Source: an uncultured candidate division Zixibacteria bacterium
GTDB taxonomy: Bacteria; Zixibacteria; MSB-5A5; GN15; FEB-12
Reading direction: 5' to 3'
Length of the DNA: 64,000 nucleotides
Assembly: GCA_963735035.1 (NCBI GenBank)
Contig: CAVTJJ010000006.1
Location: 32,001-96,000 of the forward strand
Under the pieces are notes generated by a model that worked only from the letters and a program-made list of their open reading frames with translations, did not search any database and was not told where the DNA came from. Each line of letters begins with the position of its first letter. Position 1 is the stretch's first letter. The translations under genes and the position numbers were made by a program. Below are positions 1,850 to 55,501 of the stretch, piece after piece.

Positions 1850-4267
1850 ATGCCGACGATTCGATTGGTGACATCAGGACAATCCCTGTGGATCGTGTTG
1901 TTCCTTCTGATAATCGCGATCGCTCCCGATCTGGGAGCGCGCGAGGCCGACGTTTTTCTTCAGAGCAATGCTGTTGTGATCGACAAGGCTTCTCCGGTCG
2001 TGGCTCAAAATACGCTCGATTATCTGAGAGGACGTGATTCGGTCACAGCTTCAGTCTGGGTCTTCTTTCGCGATAAAGGTATTCGCACGGCTGCCGCATT
2101 CGATTCGGCCTCGGCTGCGCTATTCATAACGGAACGAGCCGAGAATCGTCGTCGCCACCGAGCTACCGGAGGTCGGCTGTTTGCCGACCTGCCGATTTTT
2201 CAGCGCTACGTCGATAAGATAGTCAACCTGGGAGCCACACACCGGCGCTCGTCCCGATGGCTCAACGCCGCATCTTTCGATCTTCCGATGAATTTGCTTG
2301 AGACAGTGGCTTCATTACCGGAAGTTGCCGAGATCAAGCCGATTGCCGGCTTTCGCCTGCCAGAAGAGATAGAGTCAAATCTGAGGTTAACACCGCCAGA
2401 TCAAGCCCAGTCGGCCGAGGCACTCAACTACGGCCCGTCGCAGACTCAGGACTACCAGATCGGAGTACCGATCGCCCATAATCGGGGTCTGATCGGAAAA
2501 GGGGTCACGCTAACCATGACCGATACCGGGTTTCGCAAGACCCATTCGGCATTTACCAATGCCATTTCCGAGGGGCGAGTGCTAGCTGAGTATGATTTCG
2601 TAATGAACGACGGGAATACATCGCAACAACCCGGCGACCCCTCCAACCAGTGGAGCCACGGTACTCTCACCTGGTCGGTAGCGGGTGGATACTCTTCCGG
2701 ACAAGTCATAGGTCCGGCCTATGGCGCTAACTTCATTCTTTGCAAGACCGAGAACGTAGCCAGCGAAACCCCCATCGAAGAAGACAACTGGGTGGCGGCG
2801 CTTGAATTTGCGGATTCGGTTGGCACCGATGTCATCTCTACTTCGCTCGGCTACTCCGATTGGTACACCTACGCGGACATGAACGGCCAGACTGCGGTCA
2901 TCACTATAGCTGCGAACACTTGCGATGCCCTGGGGATAGTCCTGGCCGTTTCGGCCGGCAACAACGGTTCGCAACCCGGGACCATCTCGGCTCCGGCCGA
3001 CGCTTTCAATGTACTGGCAGTCGGGGCGGTTGACGCCACTGGGCGAATCGCCGCCTTTTCATCACGAGGGCCGACCTATGACGGTCGCATCAAGCCGGAA
3101 ATTTGCGCTATGGGTGTGGATACTTACGGAGCGTCGTCCACCAATGATAACATGTATACCTACGCTTCCGGTACGTCGCTGTCGGCCCCGCTTATAGCCG
3201 GAGCAGCCTGTCTGATGATAGAAGCTCGCCCCGATCTTACTCCAGCTCAAGTTCGACAAGCTTTGCAGGCAACTGCGTCACAGAGTGCCAGCCCTGACAA
3301 CGCTTACGGCTGGGGCGTTGCCGATCTCGGCAAAGCGCTCAACTGGCCGGTGTCATTCGTTTCCGACACAACTCAGGGGCCGGTTCCTCTTGAGGTCAAC
3401 TTAACCAACCAGTCATGGCTTTCGGCTGTCAGTCAGACCTGGGATTTTGGTGACGGCACGACTTCAGATGCCGTCGCAGGACATCATGTTTACAGCAGTC
3501 CCGGCCTTTACAACGTATCCTTGACCATTAGCACCGACGAGGGCCCGTTTACGGGTACGATAAGCGGCATGATTCGCACCCATTCCGATACCCTCTCGGT
3601 AGGTGAGGTGGCGTCGGACCCCGGATCTAAAGTGCGGGTCGATGTCTACGCGCGAAACTTTCTTCCCATCGAGATGATCGAAATCCCTTTTTCGTGGGAT
3701 GGCACGCTCGATATCACATATGATTCGTTTTCGACCGCCGGCCTAAGAACTTCCTATTTCTCCAGCCAAAGTCTGATAAGCCTGGTGTTGTCTCAGAAGC
3801 GGGCGACTCTGCTCCTAAGGACTTCCGGTTCTGTGTCGCAGCCGAGCCTGGAGCCGGGGAGTGGCCCGGTAATCAGTCTGTACTTTACCGTTCCGTATGG
3901 CCCCACTACCGGATCGAATCCGATCAGTCTCGAAAGCTACGGCTCTTACAGTCCGCAATTCAAGTCCGGTGGATACAGCTATAATCCGAGCGCCTTCCCG
4001 GGTCTTATTCGTATGGGCTGTTGCCTCGGTCAGGTCGGAGATGTAAACGGCGTGGATGGGGATGAACCGACCCTGGCCGATATTACCATGCTGATTGATC
4101 ATCTGTTCATCAGCGGCATTGCGCTGCCCTGTGTGACCGAAGCTGATGCTAATCAGTCGGGGGGTCTGACGCCCGTGCTCAACGACATTTCTCTGGGGGA
4201 CGTTTTCGTGTTAATCGACTACCTGTTTATTTCGGGTGGAACCGTGCCCCTTCCACGTTGTCTTTGA
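1850..4267 (+). CDS. Secreted S8 subtilase + PKD + cohesin-like + C-terminal dockerin-like domain
   Basis: Signal peptide; DTG, HGT and GTSLSAP catalytic motifs; PKD WDFGDG; cohesin-like ~3587-4018; CC..GDVNG..ADANQSGG..CL tail from 4019. Confidence 0.9.
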   Translation: MPTIRLVTSGQSLWIVLFLLIIAIAPDLGAREADVFLQSNAVVIDKASPVVAQNTLDYLRGRDSVTASVWVFFRDKGIRTAAAFDSASAALFITERAENRRRHRATGGRLFADLPIFQRYVDKIVNLGATHRRSSRWLNAASFDLPMNLLETVASLPEVAEIKPIAGFRLPEEIESNLRLTPPDQAQSAEALNYGPSQTQDYQIGVPIAHNRGLIGKGVTLTMTDTGFRKTHSAFTNAISEGRVLAEYDFVMNDGNTSQQPGDPSNQWSHGTLTWSVAGGYSSGQVIGPAYGANFILCKTENVASETPIEEDNWVAALEFADSVGTDVISTSLGYSDWYTYADMNGQTAVITIAANTCDALGIVLAVSAGNNGSQPGTISAPADAFNVLAVGAVDATGRIAAFSSRGPTYDGRIKPEICAMGVDTYGASSTNDNMYTYASGTSLSAPLIAGAACLMIEARPDLTPAQVRQALQATASQSASPDNAYGWGVADLGKALNWPVSFVSDTTQGPVPLEVNLTNQSWLSAVSQTWDFGDGTTSDAVAGHHVYSSPGLYNVSLTISTDEGPFTGTISGMIRTHSDTLSVGEVASDPGSKVRVDVYARNFLPIEMIEIPFSWDGTLDITYDSFSTAGLRTSYFSSQSLISLVLSQKRATLLLRTSGSVSQPSLEPGSGPVISLYFTVPYGPTTGSNPISLESYGSYSPQFKSGGYSYNPSAFPGLIRMGCCLGQVGDVNGVDGDEPTLADITMLIDHLFISGIALPCVTEADANQSGGLTPVLNDISLGDVFVLIDYLFISGGTVPLPRCL

Positions 4268-4361
4268 TGTGATGAGTTGATGATAGTGACGCAACCATAG
4301 TACGAACCTTGCCACCGACCCACCGGACCAGACTAACGGTGTGGCGCCGGAGGTTGGCATC

Positions 4362-6668
4362 ATGAAGAACGGTTGGACAACGCATAGTAGGTTTCTTATC
4401 TCGTTAGCGATTTTAGTATCGGCTTGGTCAGTTGTATCGGCCGCCGATGTTCCTCTGGGGACCATGCCTGTCTGGACTACCTCGGAACAAAACGTCGTCT
4501 CCACCGGGATGATCTGGCGCGACTGCAACCGTGACGGCATCATCGATGTCTTCTACTCCAACGGCAATGATATAGCCCGTGCGGCGAACACCGTCTATTT
4601 GTCCAACTCAGGCGGGCTGCCCGCTTCGGCGTCCTGGTCTTCGGCCAATCGAGAATATTCCGGCCACTGCGCGGTGGGGGATATCAACGACGATGGCTTT
4701 CCCGATTTCGTCGTGGCGAACTACCTGGGAACTGGTTTTAGCGATCCCAACCGGAGCGATCTATACATTAACCAGGGGGGACTGCCAGGCACTGCTCCGG
4801 CCTGGTACACACCTGACGAATTCTACTCGTTTTCCTGTGCGCTGGGTGATGTCGACAACGATGGCGATCTGGATGTGGTCTTCGGCACCGGCGAAGGGTA
4901 TTATGCCCACTATCAGCAGAATATAATCTATCGCAATGACAACGGGGCGTTCTCCAACACGGCGCTATGGAGATCTGCCGGTAGTAATGCGGCCGTGGAC
5001 GTGACCTGGGGAGATGTCGATCGCGATGGTGATCTTGACCTGGCCTTTACCGGGGACGCCGCTGCCACCTGTGTCTACTACAACAATAATGGCGTGATTG
5101 AAACCAGTCCGTCGTGGCAGGCTTCCACGAATGAATCCGGGAACACCCTCGTTTTCGGAGATATCAACGGGGACGGCTGGCTGGATCTGGTCGTGGCGTA
5201 TAACAACCAGCTCGACGGTCAGGGGCGTTTCCGCGTATATTTCAACAATGGTGATGGGACACTCAATCCCAATTTTGGCTGGCAGTCGGCGACCGGTGGT
5301 TACGGCTCGGCTTTGGCCCTCTACGATTATGACAACGACGGCGACGATGATCTGGCCGCCGGACGTTGGTTCGAAAGACTCTGGATCTACGAGAACCTCG
5401 GCACGACTCTGACCACCACGCCGGTATGGACCTCGGCTATAGAGATGGTGGCCGAAGAACTCGCCTGGGTGGACATCGACGGTTCAAGTCTGCTTCAACT
5501 GGCCGATACGCTTGTCGGCGACGGCTCCCGCAAACTGTTCTATACTCGCCATCATCCGTTGTATGAGATCGATTCGGTTGTGGTCGATGGCGTGACTCTG
5601 GGATTCAGCGGCTATTGCTATGATCTGGTGTCCGGCTGGCTCTCGTTAGCAGTGGCTCCGACTGAACAGGCGATTTGTTACTACCGCTATTCATTCGCAA
5701 ATGATCTGGCGGTTTGCAACTGGGATACGGTCAACATGGTTTTCCCCAACACAACGCTCCCCTTGGTGAATATTTTCGCTCAAAACAATTTTGGTCCCGT
5801 GCCTCTTGCGGTGCAATTCTCAGACAGCTCATTGAATGCCACCGCGTGGGAGTGGGATTTCGGGGACGGCTTCGGTTCTGTGGAACGTAACCCGATTCAC
5901 GTTTACGAGGAGCCGGGATACCACGACGTTGCTGTTTCAGTCACCACTCCTGAACGGATGCTCCAGCGTACCATCCGTGGCATGGTGCTGGCCTATGCCG
6001 ACACACTCCAGATGCAGCCGGGTGAGCTAGTCGGTCAAAGGGCCCGAGTTGACGTCCGGCTACACAACACGCTGCCATTAAGCGAGATTATCATTCCGTT
6101 TACCTGGGCGGGAAATTTCAATCTGCAGTTCGACTCGATTTCGGTCGCCGGTCTCAGCACCGATTACTTCGATTATCATGCGCTTATCAGCCTGGTCTTG
6201 AGCACGAAATCCGCTACGGTCCGACTAGCGTCCGGCACCAAAGTGCCACTCGCGCCCGGCAACGAGCCTGTGGTCTCGCTTTACTTCACCGACCTGGGTG
6301 CCGAGTCTGCTGGTAGCAGTCCCATAGCGTTCACGGCGTACGGAGCCTACGCTCTTCAGCTGACAACCTACGCCGGCGCCTACAACCCCGAAGCGACCAA
6401 CGGTGTCGTTTTTGTGGATTGCTGTGTCGGTCGAGTCGGCGACGCCAACGGAATTGCCGGTGATGAACCGACCTTAGGCGACGTTATGGTCATGATAGAC
6501 ATGTTGTTTGTGTCTGACACTCCGGTGCCGTGCATGGCCGAATCCGATATCAATCAATCGGGAGGAGTGTACCCGTCTCGCTACGACGTGACGATCGGCG
6601 ACATTACCATGTTGATCGATTACCTCTTCATTACCGGGCCGAGCGTTGGCCTCAACGACTGCCTCTAA
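4362..6668 (+). CDS. Secreted FG-GAP/VCBS-repeat protein + PKD + cohesin-like + dockerin-like
   Basis: About 7 GDxDxDGxxD repeats; WEWDFGDG; tail homologous to both neighbours; ATG 4362 follows GGAGG. Confidence 0.88.
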   Translation: MKNGWTTHSRFLISLAILVSAWSVVSAADVPLGTMPVWTTSEQNVVSTGMIWRDCNRDGIIDVFYSNGNDIARAANTVYLSNSGGLPASASWSSANREYSGHCAVGDINDDGFPDFVVANYLGTGFSDPNRSDLYINQGGLPGTAPAWYTPDEFYSFSCALGDVDNDGDLDVVFGTGEGYYAHYQQNIIYRNDNGAFSNTALWRSAGSNAAVDVTWGDVDRDGDLDLAFTGDAAATCVYYNNNGVIETSPSWQASTNESGNTLVFGDINGDGWLDLVVAYNNQLDGQGRFRVYFNNGDGTLNPNFGWQSATGGYGSALALYDYDNDGDDDLAAGRWFERLWIYENLGTTLTTTPVWTSAIEMVAEELAWVDIDGSSLLQLADTLVGDGSRKLFYTRHHPLYEIDSVVVDGVTLGFSGYCYDLVSGWLSLAVAPTEQAICYYRYSFANDLAVCNWDTVNMVFPNTTLPLVNIFAQNNFGPVPLAVQFSDSSLNATAWEWDFGDGFGSVERNPIHVYEEPGYHDVAVSVTTPERMLQRTIRGMVLAYADTLQMQPGELVGQRARVDVRLHNTLPLSEIIIPFTWAGNFNLQFDSISVAGLSTDYFDYHALISLVLSTKSATVRLASGTKVPLAPGNEPVVSLYFTDLGAESAGSSPIAFTAYGAYALQLTTYAGAYNPEATNGVVFVDCCVGRVGDANGIAGDEPTLGDVMVMIDMLFVSDTPVPCMAESDINQSGGVYPSRYDVTIGDITMLIDYLFITGPSVGLNDCL

Positions 6669-6704
6669 CGAAACTTCAACCAGTCGTTCACTGTTTATTC
6701 AATA

Positions 6705-6735
6705 TTGACAGAGAGAGCGAAAAGCCTTATCTTTG
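6705..6735 (+). promoter_or_regulatory. sigma70-type promoter
   Basis: TTGACA-17 nt-TATCTT(TG). Confidence 0.6.
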
Positions 6736-6815
6736 CATAGGCTAAGTATAGTTCCAACAAAGAGTTGTTCGCGATTTCCTCACGATTGCTACGACCGAAT
6801 AGAAAAGGCTTACCC

Positions 6816-8654
6816 TTGAAGACAGTGACGTCTATCCGTTTGATTCTCACTTTCGCCACAGTGTTGATTCTGTCATCTGCCGCTTTCAGTCAGATCGGTC
6901 GGGTTGCTATCTCCGACATGCAGGATCAGATTGAAAGAAGCGGCGGGACTTTCACGGTTTCTGAAAACGAAGCCACCAAGTATCCGCTTGAACAAATTTG
7001 CGGTATGAAAGAACCGGCCGACTGGAAGTCGGGTGCGAATTTCAAGTCAATACCTTCAATTGCCGCGTCATCACTGCCGTCGGCCTTTGACTGGCGGACA
7101 GCGGCAGGTGCTCCTCCGATCAGGAATCAGGGAGGATGTGGCAGTTGCTGGGCGTTTGCCACGGTCGGCGCGCTTGAGTGTGCGATCAGAATTCGCGAGG
7201 GTCAATCGGTCAATTTGTCCGAACAATGGTTGCTGAGTTGTAATCTCAATGGTTGGGACTGCGACGGTGGATGGTATGCCCATTCGTATCACGGCCTGGT
7301 AAACGACGCCTGCGGCGGCACCGGCGCAGTGCTTGAAACGGACTTCCCGTATGTCGGCCGTGTGACCGCGTGTAATTGTCCTTACCCGCATCACTATAAC
7401 ATTAAGACCTGGGCGTACATAGGCGATGGCGGCTCGGTGGCCGGCATTGAACAGATGAAGCAGGCTATAATGGAATACGGCCCTATCTCGGTGTCAATCG
7501 CCGCCAATAGCTACTTCCAGGGTTACCATAGTGGCGTATTCAACATGTGCACCAACGATCCCATCAACCACGCGGTCGTACTGATGGGGTGGGACGATTC
7601 TCAGGGCACCGACGGCGTGTGGATTTTGCGCAACTCGTGGGGTACCTCCTGGGGCGAAAGCGGCTACATGAAGATTGCCTACGGCTGCTGCCAGGTAGGG
7701 TACGCCGCATGCTACATCGACTATCGTCCGGTTGAAGTTTCCGTCACGAATGATTTTGGTCCGGCGCCTCTGACCGCTTCATTCCAGTCGAACACGCCCG
7801 GCGAAACGGTCATCGGCTGCACCTGGGATTTCGGCGACGGGGAAACGTCGACCGAAATGAATCCGATTCATCTGTACGATCAACCCGGCTGCTTCACTGT
7901 CAAGTTGACGGTCAATACCGCTTCCGGCAATCTGGTCAAGATTTGCCCCAACCTGGTCTCGGCCTACGCCGACACACTGGCCGGGGCGGCGGTTCACCTG
8001 TTGTCGGGCGGACCGGTGCGTTTGGACGTGGCAGCGCGTAATTACCTGACTCTTAACAAGATGATTATCCCATTCAGCTGGAGCGGTTCCTGGAACCTCA
8101 GGTATGATTCGTTCTCAGTAGCTTCAGCCCGAACCTCATACTTTGATCAGGCCTCATTGCTTTCCATGGATGTCTCCAATAAGCGTGCGACGATTATTCT
8201 CTCCGCTGGCAGTCAGGCTCCCCTGGCCGCGGGCGAAGGGACCGTGCTTTCGCTTTGGTTCACGGCCCCGGCCAGTCCGGCGGGTATGAATACCGTGCCG
8301 TTTACAGACTATGCTTCTTACTCGCCGGAATTTACCAGCAGCAGTCTTACCTACCGACCCAGTTTGACAAACGGGTATTTCTATACCGATGTCGCGGTCA
8401 GTTGCTGCAATGGTCGGGTGGGCGATGCCAACGGTATTGGCGGCGATGAACCAACGATCGGCGACGTCTCCGCGCTTATAGACGCCAAGTTCATTTCTGG
8501 AAGCTGTACCGGCATCTTGTCTTGTCTTCCGGAAGCCGACGTCAACCAGTCGGGCGGAACAAATCCAACGTGTGATGATATTACGATTGGAGATATTTCA
8601 GTACTGATCGACAACTTGTTCATCACCGCAAAGCCGCTGCCTAATTGTCTCTGA
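6816..8654 (+). CDS. Secreted papain-family (C1A) cysteine peptidase + PKD + cohesin-like + dockerin-like
   Basis: QGGCGSCWAF, NHAV and NSWG motifs; WDFGDG; dockerin-like from 8403. Start uncertain (TTG 6816 or 6765). Confidence 0.9.
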   Translation: MKTVTSIRLILTFATVLILSSAAFSQIGRVAISDMQDQIERSGGTFTVSENEATKYPLEQICGMKEPADWKSGANFKSIPSIAASSLPSAFDWRTAAGAPPIRNQGGCGSCWAFATVGALECAIRIREGQSVNLSEQWLLSCNLNGWDCDGGWYAHSYHGLVNDACGGTGAVLETDFPYVGRVTACNCPYPHHYNIKTWAYIGDGGSVAGIEQMKQAIMEYGPISVSIAANSYFQGYHSGVFNMCTNDPINHAVVLMGWDDSQGTDGVWILRNSWGTSWGESGYMKIAYGCCQVGYAACYIDYRPVEVSVTNDFGPAPLTASFQSNTPGETVIGCTWDFGDGETSTEMNPIHLYDQPGCFTVKLTVNTASGNLVKICPNLVSAYADTLAGAAVHLLSGGPVRLDVAARNYLTLNKMIIPFSWSGSWNLRYDSFSVASARTSYFDQASLLSMDVSNKRATIILSAGSQAPLAAGEGTVLSLWFTAPASPAGMNTVPFTDYASYSPEFTSSSLTYRPSLTNGYFYTDVAVSCCNGRVGDANGIGGDEPTIGDVSALIDAKFISGSCTGILSCLPEADVNQSGGTNPTCDDITIGDISVLIDNLFITAKPLPNCL

Positions 8655-8670
8655 TGTCGCGGTTGCCGAC

Positions 8671-20024: not shown

Positions 20025-20884
20025 ATGAAAAGAGCTTTAACGATTTTGTTCGTGCTGACGACCATGGCGATTGTCGCCGGTCCCGGCGCTGCGTAACGCT
20101 GCCTACTCCGGCATCGTTTCCGTCGATTCGGCGAAAGCCCGTCCGGCGGAATCGGTGACCGTGGGTGTCTGGCTGCGGAATAACAACATAGCCATCTCGG
20201 CGATGACTCTTCCGCTCAAATATTCAAGCTCGGCCCTTACGTTGGATTCTGTTACAACTGAGCGGCACGGTTTGGAATTCCAATTTCTCTCTCTACTCGA
20301 TTATCGACAACACCGCGCGCACCGTGCGTATCACCGTCTTGCCGAACGAAATTGTAACCCCGTTACCGGCAGCGACCTTCACCGACGGCGTCATGGCCGT
20401 GCTTCATTTCAGCGTGGCGGCGGGCGCACCGATGCAGCGAGTCACGATTGATTCGATCTATGTCGACTCTTTGATCGGCGGCGATAGCCACTTCTACACT
20501 CGAATCGACATCTCCGACAATACCGGCACCGGCGTATACCTCCCGTCTTTCACCGCCGGAAGTATAGAAATCACATCGCCGACCGATGTGGAAACCGGTG
20601 ACGGCAGTTCCACCTTGCCGACCAATTTTGTTCTGGAGCAGAACTATCCGAATCCGTTCAACCCGAGTACCGAGATCAGGTATTCTCTGCCGAAGGCCGG
20701 AAATGTAAAGCTTGAGGTTTTCAATATCCTGGGTCAGGAAGTGGCCACCCTGTTTGATGGACGTCGCGAGGCCGGAACTTATACGGCCCAGTTCGAAGGC
20801 GCTAAGCAGCCGTCCGGCATCTACTTCTATCGCCTGCGCCATGACGGTGGAGCTGAAACCAGGAAAATGCTGCTGCTCAAATAA
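20025..20884 (+). CDS. Secreted single cohesin-like domain + T9SS type A C-terminal sorting domain; two +1 frameshifts
   Basis: ATG 20025 begins signal peptide MKRALTILFVL; shifts at ~20092 and ~20256; VTVGVWLRN..LPLKYSS..LTLDSV cohesin-like; LEQNYPNPFNPST...SGIYFYRL...RKMLLLK CTD. Confidence 0.75.
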
Positions 20885-20912
20885 ACGAACCAGCTCAAGA
20901 TGCCGATATTCA

Positions 20913-20949
20913 CGGGGACAGCCGTTAAAGGCTGTCCCCGTTTCGTTTT
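20913..20949 (+). terminator. Intrinsic terminator
   Basis: CGGGGACAGCC/GGCTGTCCCCG hairpin followed by TTTCGTTTT. Confidence 0.8.
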
Positions 20950-22673: not shown

Positions 22674-22807
22674 CCTTCATCCGGTCGCATCCACCAAAAA
22701 ACAGTTGCATGAACGTGGACCGTACTATAAGTTATGGATAGGACGAGTTGCCCGTCTTTTGCTCGCTCTTTCCGCCAGATTCGATGTGCGTCCGAAAGGA
22801 GACAGGT

Positions 22808-23404
22808 ATGTTTCTAGTCAAAGCGCTGGGTGTGGTCTGCATGCTCTTGATGTGTAGTCAAGTGTGTGCCCAGGTGAATTTCGGTTGCGGAGTTGTCGAA
22901 GGTGCTACGGAGGGCGGGTGTTTTTTGTTCCGTGCCTCGGACGGATACCTCCACTGGCTGGATAACTATGGGGCCTTTGTTCCCGGGGATCTCGTGCAGG
23001 TGATCGGCCGAGAAGCCACGATAAGTGACGTAGCTGCCGGTCTATGCCCCTACTGCGGTACGTTTCAGTATCCATGTATCCTCAACGTGCAGATCAGCGA
23101 ATGCCAGCCGGCCGGACCTTGTTGCGTCGGCAAGCTTGGCGATGCGAACGGTATCGGAGGCGATGTACCCACGATCGGGGACATTAGCGTGATGATTGAC
23201 GCAAAGTTCATTACCGGTCAGTGCATTGCGGGCGGCCCGACCTCCAACATCGTGTGTCTGGCGGAGGCCGATTTCAATCAATCGGGCGGATGTAATCCCA
23301 CCTGTGCTGACATAACAATCGGGGATATTGCCAGCATTATTGATTGCCTGTTCATTTCACAATGCTTGGAAGTGAATTGGCCAAATTGTCTGGTTTGCCC
23401 GTGA
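22808..23404 (+). CDS. Small secreted Cys-rich protein with dockerin-like C-terminus
   Basis: ATG follows AAGGAG; signal peptide; ~85-aa Cys-rich beta domain; CCVGKLGDANG...ADFNQSGG...PNCL from 23120. Confidence 0.8.
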   Translation: MFLVKALGVVCMLLMCSQVCAQVNFGCGVVEGATEGGCFLFRASDGYLHWLDNYGAFVPGDLVQVIGREATISDVAAGLCPYCGTFQYPCILNVQISECQPAGPCCVGKLGDANGIGGDVPTIGDISVMIDAKFITGQCIAGGPTSNIVCLAEADFNQSGGCNPTCADITIGDIASIIDCLFISQCLEVNWPNCLVCP

Positions 23405-23552: not shown

Positions 23553-24623
23553 ATGTCGAATACATTTCATTGTAAACTCTGGTTCCTCCCCATACTAATC
23601 GTTCCGTTTTTGTGCGGCTCTACGGTATGTGCCGCTCAGGACCCTCTCGATCTAGGAGCGGCCGATTCGGTAACGGCGGTTGTGTCGCAGCCACGTCTCG
23701 GAGTAGATCACAAAGCCACGGTCGAGATTTACTTTTTCAACGACGCTCAAGCCATAATTGGAGCCTCGATAGGCTTTACCTGGGACAGCGATAAGTTCAA
23801 CCTCGATTCGGTTGTGTTTTCTCCTCAGGCGAAAACGTCCTTTTCCATGTTCCGTTACGGCCTCTATAAGGCGGATCGGGACAGTTCCAACGCCAACAAC
23901 CGCTTTCAATGCAGCGGCGGCGGGTTCCCGGCGGACGCAATTCCGTTCAGCGCCCAACCCAAACTAATTGCGAAGTATTTCTTCAGCATTTCCGGCTGGG
24001 CCGGCGGGGAAACGTTCTGTATCGATTCGGCCAATTTCGTGAACGCATCCTTTGTCAGTGCCTCCGGATCGGAATACTCGATCAATTGGCAGGGTCAGAG
24101 TTGTGTCAGCGCCGGTTCCGACGGCGATGCTGACGGAGTTGGCGACGCCTGGGACAACTGCCCCGGGGTGTCGAACTCGGACCAACTCGATGCTGACGGC
24201 GACGGCCTGGGAGACGTCTGCGACAATTGCACTGATACCGATCATGACGGATTCGGCAATCCCGGCTATCCTGCTAACACTTGTACGGTGGACAACTGCC
24301 CGACACTTTCTAATCCGGGTCAGGAAGATCAGGACGGCGACGGGATAGGGGACGCCTGCCAGTTTGGTTGCTGCCGCGGTCAGGTGGGAGACGCCAACGG
24401 GGAAGGTGGCGACGAACCGACCATCGGCGACATTGCAGTTATTATCGATATGCTGTTTATATCCGGTTCGCCGGCCTCAGTGGCTTGCCTGGCCGAGGCG
24501 GATATCAACCAGTCGGGGGGAGCAAGCCCGATCAAGGACGACATTACGATTGGCGACGTATCAGTGTTGATCGACTATCTGTTTATCACCGGCCCATCGC
24601 TCGGCCTGCCGAACTGCTTATGA
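23553..24623 (+). CDS. Secreted cohesin-like + thrombospondin type 3 repeats + dockerin-like protein (no catalytic domain)
   Basis: ATVEIYFFND..IGFTWDS..LDSVVF cohesin-like; DxDGDGxGDxCDNC repeats; dockerin-like from 24369; TTGACA-16-TATATT promoter at 23493. Confidence 0.8.
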   Translation: MSNTFHCKLWFLPILIVPFLCGSTVCAAQDPLDLGAADSVTAVVSQPRLGVDHKATVEIYFFNDAQAIIGASIGFTWDSDKFNLDSVVFSPQAKTSFSMFRYGLYKADRDSSNANNRFQCSGGGFPADAIPFSAQPKLIAKYFFSISGWAGGETFCIDSANFVNASFVSASGSEYSINWQGQSCVSAGSDGDADGVGDAWDNCPGVSNSDQLDADGDGLGDVCDNCTDTDHDGFGNPGYPANTCTVDNCPTLSNPGQEDQDGDGIGDACQFGCCRGQVGDANGEGGDEPTIGDIAVIIDMLFISGSPASVACLAEADINQSGGASPIKDDITIGDVSVLIDYLFITGPSLGLPNCL

Positions 24624-42125: not shown

Positions 42126-42363
42126 GCTGGTTGTCACAGCAAGTCAAACGGGGGTTCAAATCCCCCCTTCGGCATTAAGTCTCGAATCCCTTGGTCCTCT
42201 TTAGCTTAGGGGGGGGGATAACTATCTGCCGTGGATCGGTCGGATAGGGCGTGATAAAGAACGGCTTTGGATAATGACGTCCGATCGCATATATTTCCTA
42301 AACAGAGACGAGAGTCCACAATTTTCATACCCGAGGGTCCGATCCGGACCGGAGGCATACTAT

Positions 42364-44673
42364 ATGAAGCGACTGTTCACGATCACTGCTATAGCCATGA
42401 CATTGCTCTGCTCTTCAGCCGCCTGGGCAGGTACTGTGACTGATATCGACGGCAATGTCTATCAGACCGTGACTATCGGTATCCAGGAATGGACGGTCGA
42501 GAATCTGAAGGTGACCCGCTATCGCAACGGCGATGCGATACCGAACGTGACCGATCCAGTCACCTGGAACGGTCTGTCCACCGGAGCTTGGTGCGAGTAT
42601 GATAACAACCCGGCCCTAGGTGCCGTTTACGGCAAGCTATACAACTGGTATGCCACAACTGACAGCCGCCATCTGGCGCCCGAGGGCTGGCATGTGCCGA
42701 CTCATGAAGATTGGGTGATGTTATTAGATTATCTAGGAGGTGAATTCCTCGCCGGACACAAGCTGAGAGAAGTGGGGACCGCTCACTGGACAGCCCCCAA
42801 CACCGGCGCCACCAACGAAGTCGGGTTTACCGCTTTGCCATGCGGCTATCGTACGGATATCGGTCAATTTGCAAATGATCGGGAGCTGGGCAAGTTCGCC
42901 TCGGTGACGGAACATTGGCTTTACACTGATAACAGTTGGGACCTGCAGATTCAAGCAAGCGTGCAGGCAGCAGTCCTATGGGTTTCTCTCAAGAAATACG
43001 GGCTGTCAGTTCGCCTGGTCAAAGATATGGCTGACACCGACGGCGACGGTGTCCCTGATCCACTGGACAACTGCCCGACCGTCCCCAATCCCTTGCAGGA
43101 GGACATGGACAGCGATGCGATCGGCGACGCCTGTGATCCCGATATCGACGGTGATGGAATCGCCAACGAAGCCGACAACTGCCCGACCGTGGCCAATCCT
43201 TTGCAGGAGGACACGGACAGCGATGCGGTCGGAGACGCCTGTGATCCCGATATCGATGGTGATGGAATCGCCAACGCCTTCGATAACTGCCCGACTGTCG
43301 CTAATCCCGACCAGATGGACATGGACAGCGATGGCCTGGGTGATGTGTGTGATCCGGATATAGATGGTGATGGAATCGACAATGCCTTCGATAACTGCCC
43401 GACCATCCCCAATCCCGACCAGATGGACACAGATGGCGATATGATAGGCGATGCCTGCGATCCCGACATCGACGGCGATGGCATAGACAATGCTTTCGAT
43501 AACTGCCCGACCGTCCCCAATCCCGATCAGTTGGATACGGACGGTGATGGACTGGGCGATGCCTGTGATCCCGATTGGGACGATGATGGAATTCCCAATG
43601 ATGTGGACAACTGTCGCTTTGTCGCGAACCCGCTTCAGACTGACACCGAAGGTGATGGTTTCGGCGACGCCTGCGACAATTGTAAGTATGTGTTCAACCC
43701 GGAACAGGCCGACTCTGATCTGGATGGGGTAGGCGACGTTTGCGACAACTGTCCATTCGTGCCCAATCCCGATCAGAAAGACACCGACGGTGATCTTATC
43801 GGCGATGCCTGCGAAGTTTCCTGTTGTGTCGACCGGGTTGGTGATGCCAACGGCCTCGGAGGCGATGAGCCGACCATTGGTGATGTTTCAGTTCTAATCG
43901 ATGCCAAGTTTATTACCGGGTCTTGTGACGGTATTTTGAACTGTCTGACTGAAGCCGACGTCAACCAATCCGGTGGGACGAACCCGATCTGCGATGACAT
44001 AACGATAGGTGATATATCGATCCTGATCGACTATCTGTTCATTACGGGGCAGTCGCTGGGGCTATCGGATTGTTTGTCAACTACGCTGACAGACATCGAT
44101 GGCAATGTGTATCAGATCATAACTATCGGCACACAGGTATGGATGGCCGAGAATCTGAGAGTCACGCATTACCGCAACGGCGAACCCATTCCTAACGTGT
44201 CCGATGGAGTCGAGTGGAACGGTCTCGCCACCGGAGCTTATTGCGAATACAACAACGACGTCAATAACGGCGCTATCTATGGCCGCCTGTACAACTGGTT
44301 CGCGGTCGGTGACAGCCGCAACCTGGCGCCGGAAGGCTGGCATATAGCGACCGATGCTGAGTGGCAGACGCTGGTTAATTATCTTGGCGGCGGCTCCGTC
44401 GCGGGCGGCAAGATGAAAGAAATAGGCACCTCACATTGGGTCAGCCCCAATACGGACGCCACCAACGAGAGCGGTTTCACCGCCCGGCCGACAGGCTACC
44501 GTGGCGGCGATGGCCCCTATTACTCGATTGGCTATCAGACCGGCTACTGGTCGGCCACCGAGTACATGAGTGATTCAGCCTGGAACTGGTTCATCAGGAA
44601 CTTTCGCGGCGAAATCCTTCACGACTACAGCGGAAAGCGGAGCGGCAATCCGGTGCGCTGTGTGAAGGACTAA
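42364..44673 (+). CDS. Secreted FISUMP (Fib_succ_major) - TSP3 repeats - dockerin-like - FISUMP protein
   Basis: Two TDIDGNVY..WxxENL..YGxLYNW..APEGWH..VRxVKD domains; internal dockerin-like 43822-44076; ATG follows GGAGG. Confidence 0.88.
43033..43815 (+). repeat. TSP type 3 tandem repeats (about five to six 108-bp units, then 69-bp units)
   Basis: [36 protein letters not shown] period of 36 aa. Confidence 0.85.
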
Positions 44674-49024: not shown

Positions 49025-52000
49025 ATGAGGAAGACCATGACAAAAGGTATTGACAAGCAACTGGCCGCCATAGTTCAAATGGCTGTGGTTCTGCTGGTTA
49101 CAGTGGCTATTGGACAGCCGGCCCTGGCCCAGACCCCGGGACTATCCGGTCTATCGATAACATCGTCTTTGGGAACTAACTCGGTCGACGATGCAATTCA
49201 ATGCACATACACGCTAAACGGCTCGGCGACGACCGCCGCGGTGGCCTGGTACCGAAACACCCAGCCGGCCATGACCTTGTATATGCCTTTTGAAGGCGGC
49301 GCGACGGTCGGTCTGCAGGACTTCTCCGGCCGTGGCATGACTCCGGTCGCTTTTGGCGCGCCCACCTGGTCGGCGACTGCCGGGCGTGGCTCTACCGGGG
49401 CGTTTCAGTTTGCCGGATCGAGCTACATCAACGCCGGCAACGCCTTTCCGACGAGCTCCTCCTATTCAGTGGTATTGTGGGCCTATCCGACGAGCCTGGT
49501 CCAAACGATGGTTCCGCTGGGCAGCAGCGCCGCAAGTTCACCCGGCCATTCGCTGCGAATTGGTCTCGACGGCAAATTGACCGCCGGACACAACGGCAAC
49601 TGGCGTATCGTCACGACCGGCACAGGCGAAATCCTGATCAACAACTGGTACCTGCTTGGCGTGACCTATGACAATACTACGCATGCTATGACTCTGTACA
49701 AGAACGGCCAGCCTGTTGACACCGCGATTGTAGCCCCTTCGGAAATGGTCGTCAACGATGCCACGGTTCAGATCGGTGCGCTGCAGGGGATAGGCCTGTT
49801 TCGCGGCACTCTCGACGATGTACGCATTTACAACGCCGTCATAACTCCCGAACAGATGGCGGTGCTGTACGCGGCTGGCGGGCAGAATAGAATCTCCTCG
49901 AGGGAGAATCATGTTGGCGATGTCTGGGAGGCGCGGGTGACGCCGTTCTCGTCCTCAGCGGCGGGGACGACTGTAGCGAGCAATGACATCACTATCGTTG
50001 CGACTTCACCTGTGATAACGAGTACCGCTGTGACTGCCGGGATAGCCGGGAAGAAGTACAGCTACGAAGCCGATGCTACCGGTGGACCGCGCCCGACTTT
50101 CTCACTCTTGTCCGGTCCGACCGGAATGACGATTGATGCCGCCACCGGGCTGGTGACGTGGACGGCGACGACCGAAGGGAGCTACCCGGTTTCAATTTCG
50201 GCCGACAACAGCCAGGGGACCAATATACAGAGTTATAGCATCACGGTAGTGGCCCCGTCGGTGGGCGTGGCCAATGTGGTCATATCCGCCAATGCGGGTG
50301 GCGACCTTCAATCGTCTAACAGCCTTACCTTGAACGCGACGACTTCAGCCACCGCCTGGCTGAAGAACGGCCAGCCTTTGATGAGTCTGTTTATGCCGGC
50401 TGAGGGCGGTTCCAAATACGCTCTTGAGGATTATTCCGGCAGCGACCGGACACCCGTTGCTATAGGCAACCCGGTGTGGATGCCGACCGGCGGACGCGAC
50501 GGACACGGCGCCTGGCAGTTCGACGGGAGCAGCTATATCTTCGCCGGTAATTTCTTTCCGCTTCATTCATCGTACACCAAGGCGGCCTGGATCTATCATA
50601 CCGTCAGTGGTGAGTTCAATCACATCTTGTCCAGTTGGGACCACAACATTACCGGCACCGAAGGCCATGGGATGCGGGTCAGCTTTGACAATCGCCTGAG
50701 CGCCGGACAAAACGGTGATTGGCGTATTGTGCAGAGCGCTGCCGGGGCGATTTCACAGAATCGCTGGTATTTCGCCGCGGTGACTTTCAACTATGCCACC
50801 AGCGAAATGACTCTCTATATCGACGGTGTCCCGGTAGACACGACCATTGTCGACGCCGCTCATCGGGATGTCTCCGACGCCGGCGTTCTGGTCGGCGCCA
50901 CCCAGGGAGCTTTCGCCTGGAAAGGCATGCTCGACGACGTTCGACTGTACAATTACTCTCTGACCCCGCAGCAGATTCAGAACCTGTACACAGCCGGGGG
51001 AAGCCGCATACTGGCATCCGATACGCAAGACGGCCAGACCTGGCAGAGTCAAGTGACCGGTTTCTCGAGTACTGAAGCGAGCGTGCCGTTTGCATCCAAT
51101 GTTCTGACAATCGGTGTCACCAACCAGCCGCCGGTACTTGCGACAATCGGACCGCGTTCGGTGCAAGAGACCTCAACGCTAACCTTTACGGTTTCGGCCT
51201 CCGATCCTGACGCGACCGTGCCAACCCTTTCGGCGACTCCGCTGCCTACAAATGCAACGTTCGTAGATGCCCACAACGGCACCGGCTCGTTCAGCTTTAC
51301 GCCGTCGTATACTCAGGCAGGAACTTATAATATCTGGTTCATTGCGAGCGATGGTCAGGCGGCGGATTCTGAACTCGTCGCAATAACCGTAAGCAATTTG
51401 AACCGACCGCCGGTATTAGCGACTATAGGAAGTCAGACCGTGGCGGAAGGATCAGTCCTCAGCCTCCTGGTATCAGCAAGTGATCCGGATGGCGACGCGA
51501 TGGTAATGTCGACCGGGACGCTTCCGGCCAATGCCAATTTCGTGGATGGCGGCAGTGGTCAGGGGACTCTGACTTTTGCACCGTCTTATCTGCAGGCGGG
51601 TATCTACAACGTCTGGTTCCGCGTATTCGATCCGGCCATGGCGGGTGATTCGGAATTGGTCCAGATTACGGTCACCGATACCCCACAGAACGCTCTGTGG
51701 TTGGCGACTTTCAATGTCCAGGGCCAGACGGTCGGGTCGGCAGTTACTACTGCCGACGTGCAGCTTGGAGTCCAGATGTCGGCACAAATGTCCTGGGCGA
51801 GTCCGGCACCGCCGCAGTATACGGCGGCACTGGCCATCCGTGACGCCGACAGCGGCGGGCCGTATTTCCGCGACGTGCGCAAGTTCGGCGGCGAGTGCTA
51901 CTACTGGGTGCTCGAAATCGATCCACACGGCAATGTCGCGCCACCGACAACCAGTCGTTGCGCCACTCTCAGTTGGAATCCGGCCGAATTCAGCCCCGAC

Positions 52001-53332
52001 AATAATTACGTTCTCCGCGATGGCCTCGGTCCGAACGGAGCCGTTCTGGTTGCCGACATGAGGGCGACCACTTCGTACCAGTTATGCGATGTCCAGACCC
52101 CTCGCTATGTCACAGTTCACTGGGAGTCAAATGCCTGCGCCGGGCAGTCGTTTGCAACTTTGTCGCTATCGGCTGGTTGGAATCTGATCTCACTACCGGT
52201 GACGCCGTCATCGCTGCTCTTGTCTGACATAATTCCCACGGCGGAAATAGCTTTCGAATTCAGCGGCAGCTACCATGAAGTCACCACTCTCCAGACCGGG
52301 GTGGGGTACTGGGTGAAAGTCCCGGCCGCGACCGCGGTTGTGCTGGTCGGCGTACCGGTCACAACGGTAACGTCTACGTTGACTACCGGCTGGCATTTGG
52401 TTGGTGCCCCGGATTGCAGTGCTACCCCTCAGACGGTTCCGCTGGGGGCGCTGCAGGAGATGTTCGGATTTGCCGGTGCGTATTCGCCGGCCACGCAAAC
52501 CACTGCCGGAGCCGGTTATTGGGCCAGGATCAGTCCGGACTGCACTTTCGATCTCGTCTGTGCTGCTCCGTCGCCGGCGAGACCTCTGGCCGGCGCCGTT
52601 GCTACGGACAGTCGACTGTCAATCAAGGCTGAGCGTCTCGTCAATGGTCTCGTTGGCGATGCCTTTGTCGAGCTTGGCACCGGAGCGACTTCGTCATCTC
52701 TCGATGCTCCTCCGGAGGCGCCGCAATACGCTGTTAAACTGAATCTCTATCGCTCCGAATGGAACGGGCCGTACTATAGTGACATTCGCACTGCTTCAGA
52801 TAATGACAATCTCTGGATTCTGGCCGTGAATCCATGTGGTAACGAGGGTGGTACCGGTTCACGTACAGTAGTACTATCATGGGATCCGAGTATGATGGGC
52901 GACCAGAAGTATGAACTTCGGGCGGGATCCGATGGCACCGGCGAAGTCGTGATAGCTGATATGAAAACCGACACCAGCGTGACTGTTACCGGCGACAATC
53001 GCGATCAGTTCTTTTCCGTGGTGCTCACCTCGACCGTCGCCGATGCCTTACCGTCGCAGTATGAGCTGAGCCAGAACTATCCCAACCCTTTCAACCCGAG
53101 CACTCAGATATCGTTCGGGATGCCGGGATCGGGCCATGTACGCCTCGAAGTCCTCAACATTCTCGGCCAGCATGTCGCCACGCTTCTGGATCAGAATCTG
53201 GGGGCCGGCACTCACAATATCACGTGGGAAGCCACTGACGACGGCGGCCACTCGGTTGCGAGCGGCGTGTACCTCTATCGGTTGACAGTCGGTGAATTCA
53301 GCAGCGTCAAGAAGATGGTGCTCTTGCGCTGA
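49025..53332 (+). CDS. Large secreted protein: 2x LamG-like, putative Ig, 2x cadherin-like, GWNL repeats, FlgD/T9SS type A CTD
   Basis: G.LDDVR.YN x2; GPTGMTIDAATG; NxPPVLATIG..SASDPD x2; LSQNYPNPFNPST..ASGVYLYRL..KKMVLLR. Confidence 0.85.
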   Translation: MRKTMTKGIDKQLAAIVQMAVVLLVTVAIGQPALAQTPGLSGLSITSSLGTNSVDDAIQCTYTLNGSATTAAVAWYRNTQPAMTLYMPFEGGATVGLQDFSGRGMTPVAFGAPTWSATAGRGSTGAFQFAGSSYINAGNAFPTSSSYSVVLWAYPTSLVQTMVPLGSSAASSPGHSLRIGLDGKLTAGHNGNWRIVTTGTGEILINNWYLLGVTYDNTTHAMTLYKNGQPVDTAIVAPSEMVVNDATVQIGALQGIGLFRGTLDDVRIYNAVITPEQMAVLYAAGGQNRISSRENHVGDVWEARVTPFSSSAAGTTVASNDITIVATSPVITSTAVTAGIAGKKYSYEADATGGPRPTFSLLSGPTGMTIDAATGLVTWTATTEGSYPVSISADNSQGTNIQSYSITVVAPSVGVANVVISANAGGDLQSSNSLTLNATTSATAWLKNGQPLMSLFMPAEGGSKYALEDYSGSDRTPVAIGNPVWMPTGGRDGHGAWQFDGSSYIFAGNFFPLHSSYTKAAWIYHTVSGEFNHILSSWDHNITGTEGHGMRVSFDNRLSAGQNGDWRIVQSAAGAISQNRWYFAAVTFNYATSEMTLYIDGVPVDTTIVDAAHRDVSDAGVLVGATQGAFAWKGMLDDVRLYNYSLTPQQIQNLYTAGGSRILASDTQDGQTWQSQVTGFSSTEASVPFASNVLTIGVTNQPPVLATIGPRSVQETSTLTFTVSASDPDATVPTLSATPLPTNATFVDAHNGTGSFSFTPSYTQAGTYNIWFIASDGQAADSELVAITVSNLNRPPVLATIGSQTVAEGSVLSLLVSASDPDGDAMVMSTGTLPANANFVDGGSGQGTLTFAPSYLQAGIYNVWFRVFDPAMAGDSELVQITVTDTPQNALWLATFNVQGQTVGSAVTTADVQLGVQMSAQMSWASPAPPQYTAALAIRDADSGGPYFRDVRKFGGECYYWVLEIDPHGNVAPPTTSRCATLSWNPAEFSPDNNYVLRDGLGPNGAVLVADMRATTSYQLCDVQTPRYVTVHWESNACAGQSFATLSLSAGWNLISLPVTPSSLLLSDIIPTAEIAFEFSGSYHEVTTLQTGVGYWVKVPAATAVVLVGVPVTTVTSTLTTGWHLVGAPDCSATPQTVPLGALQEMFGFAGAYSPATQTTAGAGYWARISPDCTFDLVCAAPSPARPLAGAVATDSRLSIKAERLVNGLVGDAFVELGTGATSSSLDAPPEAPQYAVKLNLYRSEWNGPYYSDIRTASDNDNLWILAVNPCGNEGGTGSRTVVLSWDPSMMGDQKYELRAGSDGTGEVVIADMKTDTSVTVTGDNRDQFFSVVLTSTVADALPSQYELSQNYPNPFNPSTQISFGMPGSGHVRLEVLNILGQHVATLLDQNLGAGTHNITWEATDDGGHSVASGVYLYRLTVGEFSSVKKMVLLR

Positions 53333-54164: not shown

Positions 54165-54493
54165 CCATAAATGTTGTTACGGCTCGGCTCGCACCTCTTC
54201 ACAAGGACAACAACGGTCGCACTGGGAAGGCGTTCGTCGAATTCCAGAAGATATTCTCCTGAAATGGGAACATAGAGCAAGTACATCCAAGTTACAAGTA
54301 TAGCGATTGTTGACAGGTTTGTCTGTCGACGTCAGGCAGGTCAGCGTCGTCCCACACCTTGAATTCCTTTGAATACAGCTTTCCTGCCTGAACCGTTGCT
54401 GGGCTACAAACTGCAGAAGGCGAACGTAAATAGGTTTGGTCGTCTACCAGCCGAAAAGTAATTGTTATCGATATTCCCCCAGGAGGTTACGAA

Positions 54494-55501
54494 ATGCCAC
54501 GGAACGTTAAGGCGATTGTTGCTCTGACCTTTCTGATAAGTCTGGGGCTCTTGCCGACAGCCCATGCCACGATTCGCAATATCAACGTCGGTAATTTCTT
54601 CTTCACGCCGCTCCACACAGTCGCGAATATTGGTGACACAATCCAATGGACCTTCGTGTCGGGCATCCACAGCACAACTTCTGATGTGACCTCCCCAAAG
54701 TCGTGGGACTCGGGTACGAAGAGCTCCGGGACATTCCGTATCGTGCTAACCCGCGATGATCGTCCCGGCCCATTCCCGTACCATTGCTCTGTGCACCCTC
54801 TTATGATGATCGATACCATATTCGTTTCGCCGACTCACGATGGAGATGGTGACGGGATCGTAGACATTCACGATAACTGTCCGTTTGTGGCAAACCCGGC
54901 TCAGCAGGATAGTGACGGTGACGGCATAGGTGACATCTGCGACAACTGTCCTGCGATAGCCAATGCCAATCAGTCTGACGTCGATTTGGACGGCATAGGG
55001 GATGTTTGCGACAACTGCCCGTCGATCGCGAACCCACTGCAGACTGACACCGACGGAGACGGTATTGGTAATGCCTGCGATAATTGTCCGACGGTGGCGA
55101 ATCCGCTGCAAACTGACACCGACGGAGACGGCGTAGGTGATGTATGCGACAATTGCCCTACGGTCGCGAATCCACTGCAGACCGATACCGACGCGGACGG
55201 CATAGGAGATGCATGCGCCGGCTGCTGTGTCGGCCGAGTGGGCGACGCGAACGGTTCGGGAGAGGACTTGCCAACGATAGGTGATATCAGCGTCATGATC
55301 GATGCCAAATTCATAACCGGCGTCTGTATCGCATCGGGTCCGGGGGCAAACATTCGGTGTCTTGCAGAAGCTGATATGAACCTGTCGGGCGGTGCCAATC
55401 CGACCTGTGACGACATAACGATCGGTGACATATCAATGTTGATAGACGATCTGTTCATCACCGGTGAGCCTCCGTACGTGAGAAATGTCTGTCCACTATA
55501 A
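54494..55501 (+). CDS. Secreted plastocyanin-like cupredoxin + TSP3 repeats + dockerin-like
   Basis: FTP..GDTIQW..HS and [10 protein letters not shown] type-1 Cu ligands; five 23-aa TSP3 units; dockerin-like from 55223. Confidence 0.85.

Follow-up and report, generated by a model that had tools for sequence, protein, structure and literature searches.

Putative cohesin and dockerin genes in the window

The window analysed here is a stretch of 64,000 nucleotides (C6:32001-96000) from the 3.61-Mb genome of an uncultured Zixibacteria bacterium, which is assembled in 6 contigs and 96.9% complete. Seven genes in the window encode proteins that share a cysteine-rich, mostly C-terminal module of about 85 amino acids (aa), for which the name CC-dockerin is used here, and four of these proteins also carry a beta domain resembling the cohesins of cellulosomes. 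The results presented below make it fairly probable that the two modules are parts of a non-cellulolytic display network, in which cohesins and dockerins serve proteolysis outside the cell and adhesion.

All of these genes lie on the plus strand. The gene at 1850..4267 encodes an S8 subtilase (Pfam Peptidase_S8, E 1.4e-40) followed by a PKD domain, a putative cohesin (3572-4018) and a CC-dockerin (4019-4264), and the cohesin abuts the dockerin with no linker between them. The same order is found behind an FG-GAP propeller (FG-GAP_3, E 9.7e-39) in the gene at 4341..6668 (PKD; cohesin 5973-6419; CC-dockerin 6420-6665) and behind a papain-family C1A peptidase (Peptidase_C1, E 3.3e-50) in the gene at 6765..8654 (PKD; cohesin 7950-8402; CC-dockerin 8403-8651). 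In the FG-GAP protein, the two modules are matched at E 6.4e-51 and 9.9e-41 by the hidden Markov models (HMMs) of the cassette cohesin and the CC module, respectively. The term cassette denotes PKD-cohesin-dockerin, with the cohesin joined without a linker to the CC-dockerin on peptidase or propeller proteins.

The other four carriers are more varied. The gene at 22748..23404 encodes a small protein with a cysteine-rich N-terminal domain of about 90 aa and a CC-dockerin (23120-23401, module E 4.8e-41), for which Pfam gives no family beyond a weak DUF5818 match. At 23553..24623, a divergent cohesin-like domain (23628-24110) is followed by TSP_3 repeats (E 2.3e-11) and a CC-dockerin (24369-24620). 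The 799-aa protein encoded at 42274..44673 has two Fib_succ_major (FISUMP) domains (Pfam E 2.5e-85), seven TSP_3 repeats (E 2.5e-78) and an internal CC-dockerin (43822-44079, aa 517-601, module E 9.6e-44), which lies between the TSP_3 repeats and the second Fib_succ_major domain. Finally, the protein encoded at 54494..55501 combines TSP_3 repeats (E 2e-32) and a CC-dockerin (55223-55498, module E 1.1e-40) with a weakly cupredoxin-like N-terminal domain, which in a phmmer search against the PDB matched the cupredoxin domain of the Cu nitrite reductase 9cck_A at E 0.0036 and pseudoazurins and plastocyanins at E 0.08-0.95. A signal-peptide-like N-terminus, judged by eye, is present in all seven proteins, and the module is C-terminal in six of them.

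An initial annotation of the window had reported seven modules and four proteins with both a cohesin-like and a dockerin-like domain. Both counts were reproduced, and the pattern CC-x(1-3)-[VL]GD-x-NG applied to the translated genes places all seven modules at the exact nucleotides given there (4019, 6420, 8403, 23120, 24369, 43822 and 55223). That annotation missed the genome-wide spread of the module and the C-terminal domain (CTD) of the type IX secretion system (T9SS) on a further gene at 20025..20884, which encodes a small protein with a cohesin and this CTD (Por_Secre_tail, E 9e-10). The 20025 gene is interrupted by two frameshifts and is a candidate surface anchor.

The CC module as a dockerin

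The seven modules of the window are 83-94 aa long and align over 94 columns, 30 of which are invariant, including C1, C2, C41 and C82. They are 59-81% identical to the copy in the C1A protein, and a profile built from the seven scores E 7e-38 to 1e-43 on every carrier. Tandem repeats of a calcium loop and a helix, GDxNG..D.PTIGD..xID..FI and D.NxSGG..P..D.TIGD..LID.LFI, are evident in all seven and in the 57 copies aligned from the whole genome. When these 57 modules were compared by hhalign with 11 PF00404 dockerins of the same genome, the CC repeats paired repeat for repeat with those of the canonical dockerins at a probability of 98.6% and E 1.2e-15. The only gaps in that alignment are insertions in the CC module, two residues in calcium loop 1 and seven in loop 2.

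The structure model corroborates the profile comparison. The AlphaFold2 (AF2) model of the C1A module (pLDDT 92.6; helices at 19-31, 42-45 and 62-75) has the compact three-helix fold expected of a dockerin. With this model VIA found 15 of 169 chains at Z>=5, dockerins making up 13 of 13 among the matches listed, and the best was 4fl4_A (Z 8.9, root-mean-square deviation (rmsd) 2.1 A, 66/68 residues). The top six rows of the Foldseek search were also dockerins (TM 0.5-0.76).

Homologues of the same architecture point in the same direction. A search with the C-terminal 236 residues of the S8 protein returned 99 proteins, mostly from Zixibacteria where named, in which a catalytic domain or propeller is followed by PKD, the beta domain and a C-terminal module. 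Eight of the more distant homologues with this architecture were scanned, and at the place of the CC module five have a Dockerin_1 match over the cut-off. The other three have CC...C...C intermediates, undetected by Pfam, in which the loop insertions are absent or shorter.

D8, N10 and D21 of loop 1, at the positions of calcium ligands 1, 3 and 12, vary little or not at all, as do D46, N48, S50 and D64 of loop 2, and the loop insertions themselves contain conserved aspartates (D15 and D59). The helices of both repeats are near-identical, TIGD(V/I)S..ID..FI(S/T)G, and near-symmetric helices are typical of dual-binding type I dockerins. Most modules finish in a conserved Cys-Leu. The four near-invariant cysteines, placed at both ends of the module and within the linker between the repeats, probably clamp the N- and C-termini together by two disulfides. 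As judged from profiles and the predicted fold, the CC module is a divergent type-I-like dockerin, in agreement with the initial annotation.

The beta domain as a cohesin

The beta domains of the S8, FG-GAP and C1A proteins (about 145 aa) share 41-44% identity. The S8 copy alone was modelled, from an alignment of 89 rows, and its AF2 model (pLDDT 95.4, thirteen strands) has the nine-stranded beta-sandwich (jelly-roll) characteristic of cohesins. Foldseek returned 102 matches at E<=1e-3, cohesins throughout among the matches listed, with 5lxv_A as the best (E 1.9e-9, probability 1.00). In VIA the best match was 5nrk_A (Z 17.6, rmsd 2.2 A, 138/143 residues); among the matches listed, 50/50 were cohesins, type I (Z 15-17.6) scoring above type II (Z 12.6-13.6). 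An Ig-like X-module that stabilises the dockerin was considered for the beta domain and rejected, cohesins being all the structural matches listed.

At the sequence level, a profile of four beta domains gave a weak match to the cohesin 5m2s_A in the PDB (E 0.02). The HMM made from cassette domains only (87 rows, 23553 excluded) matched another protein of the genome, C4_139769, at aa 378-481 (E 8.2e-6), and this match coincides with a PF00963 match of 41.8 bits at aa 379-483. On the homologues P0105 (E 0.012) and P0095 (E 0.069) PF00963 is sub-threshold. These searches and the model identify the beta domain encoded by the S8, FG-GAP and C1A genes as having a type-I-like cohesin fold. The initial annotation had made its proposal depend on this fold and had assigned the domain to five genes; the assignment stands for all five, the 23553 copy being 20% identical to the others and the 20025 copy frameshifted. 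The N-terminal domain of the 23553 protein is a probable, more divergent cohesin, since hhalign aligned its subfamily (A7) with the cassette and CTD cohesins (A8) at a probability of 92.6% and E 4.4e-7. The ESM Atlas offers only a lead here, one cluster (score 0.93) in which 13% of members have PF00963.

In the window's anchor candidate, the signal peptide is read in frame 3 from 20025, the N-terminal half of the cohesin in frame 1 (20104-20256, cassette cohesin HMM E 1.4e-5) and the rest with the CTD in frame 2 (20252-20881). The frameshifts were traced by three-frame translation and by tblastn with an intact orthologue of the same genus. Orthologues with a single open frame are present in G014 (65% identity), G103 and G034, which are relatives in a set of 151 genomes of the phylum where G000 is the genome of the window. 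An HtrA-like paralogue on the plus strand at 18226-19730 is likewise broken up into three reading frames (18226-19248; 19166-19486 with one PDZ domain; 19254-19730 with a second), and the two genes contain at least four frame changes in 2.7 kb. Because the HtrA-like gene is split too, true decay of the 20025 gene and indels in the local assembly are equally likely. Elsewhere on the contig (C6:497704-499345), a second S8-PKD-cohesin-CC-dockerin gene is found in two open reading frames (ORFs) of 449 aa (L139) and 118 aa (L111); the former stops inside the cohesin and the latter carries the dockerin, indicating another frameshift or assembly indel.

Genome-wide census

The genome-wide count of the module, proposed as a check in the initial annotation, yielded 78 matches to the CC-dockerin profile, of which 66 are strong ORFs (domain E<1e-20). 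The mean column identity over 57 copies is 68%. In 62 of the 66, no more than 15 aa separate the end of the module from the C-terminus; the module is internal or N-proximal in four, and one ORF has two copies.

The carriers were scanned with Pfam, the seven window proteins at E<=0.1 and the other 59 at E<=1e-5. Peptidases constitute 12 of the 66 and span 10 Pfam families (two S8, two C1, two C10, M64, M14, M43, M4, M1 and trypsin-like). The scan further recognised one Amidase_3 protein, four with SBBP, three each with Fib_succ_major, FG-GAP, a DUF5122/Rax2 propeller or a beta-helix, and one with a WD40 propeller. TSP_3 spacers occur in 10 carriers, and 29 are without a Pfam family. No glycoside hydrolase (GH) or carbohydrate-binding module (CBM) family was found in any of the 66, nor in 25 cohesin or canonical-dockerin ORFs scanned with Pfam. 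The initial annotation's view of the cargo as proteases, lectin-like and redox proteins in place of carbohydrate-active enzymes (CAZymes) is thereby largely borne out, the cargo comprising peptidases, binding domains of propeller or lectin-like type and a single protein with weak likeness to cupredoxins. Since 29 carriers have no Pfam family, CAZymes may still be hidden among them. In these ORFs, Pfam does not reveal the combination that defines a cellulosome, CAZymes as dockerin cargo and a cellulose-binding scaffoldin.

Canonical dockerins are present as well. Pfam Dockerin_1 gave 17 matches in the genome, 13 over the cut-off, mostly on proteins without the CC module (S8, two M28, GEVED and FG-GAP/beta-helix). 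In two proteins (L137 and L140), the canonical dockerin is accompanied by a cohesin at the N-terminus. In a DUF7901 protein (L107, C5:3852-6740), a canonical dockerin at aa 795-849 is immediately followed by a CC-dockerin at aa 870-960, and this double dockerin could bridge two cohesin specificities.

Cohesins were found in at least 16 ORFs by iterated HMM searches, with a few more by Pfam alone. No scaffoldin with many tandem cohesins was found, the maximum being two per ORF (L136 and L125), and very divergent cohesins could escape such searches. Seven ORFs combine a cohesin with Por_Secre_tail, namely the 20025 gene and L123, L125, L126, L131, L136 and L138, L125 and L136 being those with two cohesins apiece. 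Por_Secre_tail has 44 matches in the genome and none in the 66 CC-dockerin ORFs. One SprA-like match to the T9SS translocon and three secretin genes were also recorded. Proteins with both a cohesin and a CC-dockerin number four in the window and six or seven genome-wide.

Two further features of the census concern the arrangement of the carriers. Five paralogues of about 1,230-1,237 aa (L085, L094-L096 and L113) have the CC-dockerin at their end and no Pfam family at E<=1e-5; they lie at C4:162584-166285, C4:942064-954561 and C6:503090-506782, three of them consecutively on C4. The densest cluster, at C3:227830-271344, holds 12 of the 66 CC-dockerin genes on one strand within about 45 kb, and its cargo comprises an M43 cassette, beta-helix, SBBP and DUF5122 propeller proteins and several without a family.

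Distribution and origin

Among 1.84 billion representative proteins, the module profile matched 1,194 clusters at E<=1e-3, and the number falls to 634 at E<=1e-10 and to 220 at E<=1e-30. For the best 150 of the 1,194 clusters, the match nearly always reaches the last residues of the protein. The named records with the module (26 loci) come from two species of metagenome-assembled genomes (MAGs) of Zixiibacteriota (20 and 2 loci) and from one MAG labelled Ignavibacteriales (4 loci).

In the 151 genomes of the phylum, for which the counts are lower bounds because the best 36 candidates per genome were scored, the module is present at E<=1e-10 in at least 18, including G000, all of them in the family of the window. 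This corresponds to at least 17 of the 54 other members of that family and 0 of 96 genomes in the other 18 families. At E<1e-30 it is seen only in the genus of the window (G000 and G014). Cassette cohesin genes are found in tandem arrays in G000 itself and in G014, G034 and G103, and in G014 and G034 these arrays share a contig with the conserved cohesin-T9SS gene, some 12-30 kb apart. Since the arrays and the cohesin-T9SS gene are kept in G014, G034 and G103, the cassette predates the CC variant. Within this lineage the dockerin was remodelled, and afterwards it spread to some 66 genes or was homogenised among them.

Genomic context of the window

Interspersed among the seven genes are those for superoxide dismutase, a sigma factor, HtrA proteases, a tandem kinase, pantothenate and nucleotide metabolism, glycosyltransferases, PEP carboxykinase and a chemoreceptor. 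The 54-kb span was considered as one functional island, and this was rejected on account of the interleaved housekeeping genes. A single locus, as the joint entry of the span in the initial annotation might suggest, is not supported: the seven genes are interspersed with housekeeping genes and account for 7 of the 66 copies spread through the genome.

A perfect sigma-70 consensus (TTGACA, 16 nt, TG-TATAAT, 12/12) is located at 1527-1554 on the plus strand, some 300 nt ahead of the S8 gene, and a 10/12 match at 6705-6733 precedes the C1A gene. Apart from the one perfect site, promoter and terminator counts in a scan of 1400-9000 were no higher than in shuffled sequences.

Three other genes on the plus strand deserve mention. 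The ORF at 20712-22673, between the cohesin-T9SS gene and the 22748 and 23553 genes, encodes two Ser/Thr kinase domains and a C-terminal transmembrane helix; it overlaps the 3' end of the 20025 gene, and its real start is probably further downstream. At 49025-53332, flanked by two CC-dockerin genes, a surface protein of 1,435 aa is encoded with Laminin_G_3, He_PIG and Big_9/cadherin-like domains and a T9SS CTD (53078-53320); it is an adhesin-like T9SS cargo, and no cohesin or dockerin was detected inside it. The gene at 47816-48868 encodes a type III polyketide synthase (chalcone/stilbene synthase N and C domains) and has no relation to the dockerin system.

Proposed working and alternative explanations

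Folds, homology, the census and the domain combinations were computed, and from these we infer binding, pairing rules, calcium dependence and surface location. The domain combinations are complementary, since a T9SS tail is absent from all 66 CC-dockerin ORFs and present on seven cohesin ORFs. In the proposed network, these seven T9SS-exported cohesin proteins would be fixed on the outer surface as sockets, into which dockerin-tagged peptidases, propellers, FISUMP domains and other cargo would plug in a calcium-dependent manner. The cohesins borne by enzymes would serve as extra sockets and allow complexes to branch, and proteins mixing cohesins and dockerins may act as branch points or as adaptors joining the two dockerin classes. 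The initial annotation envisaged a scaffoldin-free assembly, against which the seven T9SS-tailed cohesin proteins, two of them with two cohesins and one being the 20025 gene, argue.

A number of results weigh against the display network and the module assignments on which it is built. Pfam Dockerin_1 matches none of the seven window proteins at E<=0.1 and, in the other 59 carriers at E<=1e-5, only L107 through its separate canonical dockerin; PF00963 Cohesin likewise has no match on the seven window proteins at E<=0.1. The seven-module profile found no dockerin among PDB sequences, its three matches, at E 0.1-1, being to a ribosomal protein S8 and a sperm lysin receptor. All Foldseek E values for the CC model exceed 0.1, which is ascribed to the small size of the domain. 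The domain of the 23553 protein is not matched by the cassette-only HMM, and the profile of its subfamily gave 11 PDB matches, all at E>=0.047 and none a cohesin. In loop 1, position 5 is variable, and because this position is unconserved and both loops are lengthened, calcium binding is not assured. It must also be noted that the CC-dockerin proteins have no recognised outer-membrane export signal and that the anchor candidate of the window is frameshifted in the assembly. Cohesin-only genes lie within 5 kb of a CC-dockerin gene in 4 of 12 cases against 1.5 expected (P about 0.05), and for the median distance P is about 0.10, a weak enrichment that is not counted in favour of the network. The Pfam Dockerin_1 miss is read as a limit of model sensitivity caused by the loop insertions and not as non-homology. 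The HMM and profile check proposed in the initial annotation accordingly came out divided, negative for Pfam Dockerin_1 and Cohesin on the window proteins and positive in the profile-profile comparison. A complex prediction, run without controls, for the S8 cohesin-dockerin didomain with the C1A CC-dockerin gave an ipSAE of 0.01 in both runs (mark 0.32) and is no evidence either way.

One may speculate that the cassette proteins chain head to tail into scaffoldin-free filaments or a coat, capped by other CC-dockerin proteins, and we regard this as unlikely. The rigid, linker-less didomain of the S8, C1A, M43 and FG-GAP proteins would then be a self-assembly unit whose dockerin inserts into the cohesin of the next molecule. 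Ordered filaments or a coat of proteases and adhesins would start from T9SS-anchored cohesins, with about 60 other CC-dockerin proteins as caps, which we likewise judge unlikely. If real, such a self-assembling didomain would amount to a novel way of constructing cohesin-dockerin assemblies, from the enzymes themselves. The proteins with both modules, the tandem cassette genes seen here and in G014, G034 and G103, and the uniformity of the CC-dockerins, by which one socket type could serve all of them, are in keeping with it. So is the junction between cohesin and dockerin, which is 2-7 residues across 87 homologues and may, being so short, stand in the way of canonical binding in cis. That the cassette cohesin accepts a CC-dockerin is an assumption, however, and with two dockerin classes in the genome it may accept the canonical class instead. 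Known proteins with a cohesin and a dockerin, for instance adaptor scaffoldins such as ScaC of R. flavefaciens, use two different specificities, which also counts against a polymer, and the anchor-type cohesins with T9SS tails make it superfluous as an explanation.

It is also conceivable, if rather improbable, that the CC module is a mere sorting or stability tag, stabilised by calcium and disulfides, of dockerin ancestry and without a cohesin partner, and that the cohesin-fold domains serve some other role. The terminal position of 62 of 66 copies, most closing in the conserved Cys-Leu, would suit such a tag, as would the want of any other known outer-membrane export signal on the carriers (0 of 66 with a T9SS CTD) and the restriction of the tight CC type to one lineage (E<1e-30 in genus g1 alone among 151 genomes). 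A terminal sorting signal would not, however, tolerate four internal or N-proximal copies and a protein with two. The helices are the best conserved part of the module and internally duplicated, and in solved type I complexes it is the dockerin helices that contact the cohesin. The module moreover grades via intermediates into canonical dockerins within orthologous architectures, and the genome has at least 16 cohesin-fold ORFs, seven with surface-anchoring tails. A variant in which the CC-dockerin proteins already bind T9SS-tailed cohesins while periplasmic and are carried along with these through the outer membrane, the dockerin being secretion ticket and surface tether at once, strikes us as very improbable. 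It would account for cargo without the CTD beside presumed receptors with it, and a homologue of the T9SS translocon is present; it is otherwise wholly conjectural, the three secretin genes allow a type II route, and no precedent was found in the literature examined. The display network is retained as the preferred reading.

Comparison with known systems

The closest structural likeness is to the type I pairs of clostridial cellulosomes (A. cellulolyticus ScaB Coh6-Cel5 Doc, 5nrk; C. thermocellum OlpA-Doc918, 3ul4; and 4fl4), with cohesin Z of 17.2-17.6 and dockerin Z of 8.6-8.9. As in those systems, a duplicated calcium-loop and helix motif with near-symmetric helices is placed mostly at the C-terminus of secreted enzymes, and dozens of dockerins stand against fewer cohesins per genome. 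The present modules differ in being invisible to Pfam, in loops longer by two and seven residues and in the four conserved cysteines. The cargo here is peptidases and binding domains, with GH or CBM families in 0 of 66 carriers. Anchoring would be by the T9SS CTD in a diderm, whereas clostridial cellulosomes use SLH domains or sortase, and scaffoldins with three or more cohesins were not found, the cohesins being fused directly to enzymes and their dockerin.

The best Foldseek match, 5lxv, is the cohesin of ScaC, a monovalent adaptor scaffoldin of R. flavefaciens. ScaC resembles the cassette proteins in having one cohesin and one dockerin per polypeptide, but it has no catalytic domain and its two modules differ in specificity, whereas the linker-less pair described here is fused to a peptidase or propeller. 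The fold likeness extends to non-cellulosomal cohesins of Archaeoglobus fulgidus (2xdh, Z 16.2) and of Clostridium perfringens glycosidases (2vo8, 2jh2 and 2w1n, Z 13.8-14.8). Non-cellulosomal cohesins and dockerins have been recognised for many years and were reportedly surveyed by Peer et al. in 2009, some of them on peptidases and some with both modules in one protein. What sets the present genome apart from these is about 80 dockerins in 3.6 Mb, a dedicated subtype and T9SS anchoring. Literature searches found no report tying Zixibacteria to dockerins and nothing usable on self-binding cohesin-dockerin proteins in Archaeoglobus.

Cloacimonadota and the present organism both belong to the FCB group. 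For the cloacimonadotal 'Ca. Stygibacter', a cellulosome-like complex with dockerin-tagged S8 and C25 peptidases and GH18 and GH57 enzymes, whose domains Pfam can detect, has been proposed in silico around a scaffoldin of 3,755 aa with tandem cohesins, CBMs and a T9SS CTD that would attach it to the surface (Williams et al. 2021, PMC8542988). A cohesin-dockerin complex that carries peptidases, is not cellulolytic and is anchored by the T9SS had already been put forward there, and a 2025 review names S8 and cysteine peptidases as cellulosome accessories (PMC12484212). The genome studied here has the same defining combination of T9SS-tailed cohesins and dockerin-tagged secreted peptidases, and the likeness extends to S8 and cysteine peptidases with signal peptides and C-terminal dockerins, a cohesin with a T9SS CTD and an inferred role in protein degradation. 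Set against the Stygibacter complex, the present system has single or double cohesins, no GH in 66 carriers, a main dockerin class invisible to Pfam, and cohesins borne by enzymes.

NCBIfam has no model covering the CC module or the beta domain, and because both modules escape Pfam and NCBIfam, standard annotation misses the whole system. In a 3.6-Mb genome of a phylum that is uncultured and known from sediment and soil, about 80 dockerin-tagged proteins and about 20 cohesins, with cargo of mainly peptidases and binding modules, would mean that the building principle of the cellulosome is employed at full scale for a purpose other than the breakdown of polysaccharides. The CC-dockerin and the didomain pose a testable question on specificity and self-assembly, and a putatively disulfide-clamped, loop-expanded dockerin and an enzyme-borne didomain are possible parts for designer protein assemblies. 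Compared with the systems discussed above, three features are new: the Pfam-invisible CC-dockerin subtype with its loop insertions and putative cysteine clamp, the scale of 66 copies with no CAZyme found among the carriers, and the linker-less enzyme-PKD-cohesin-dockerin cassette.

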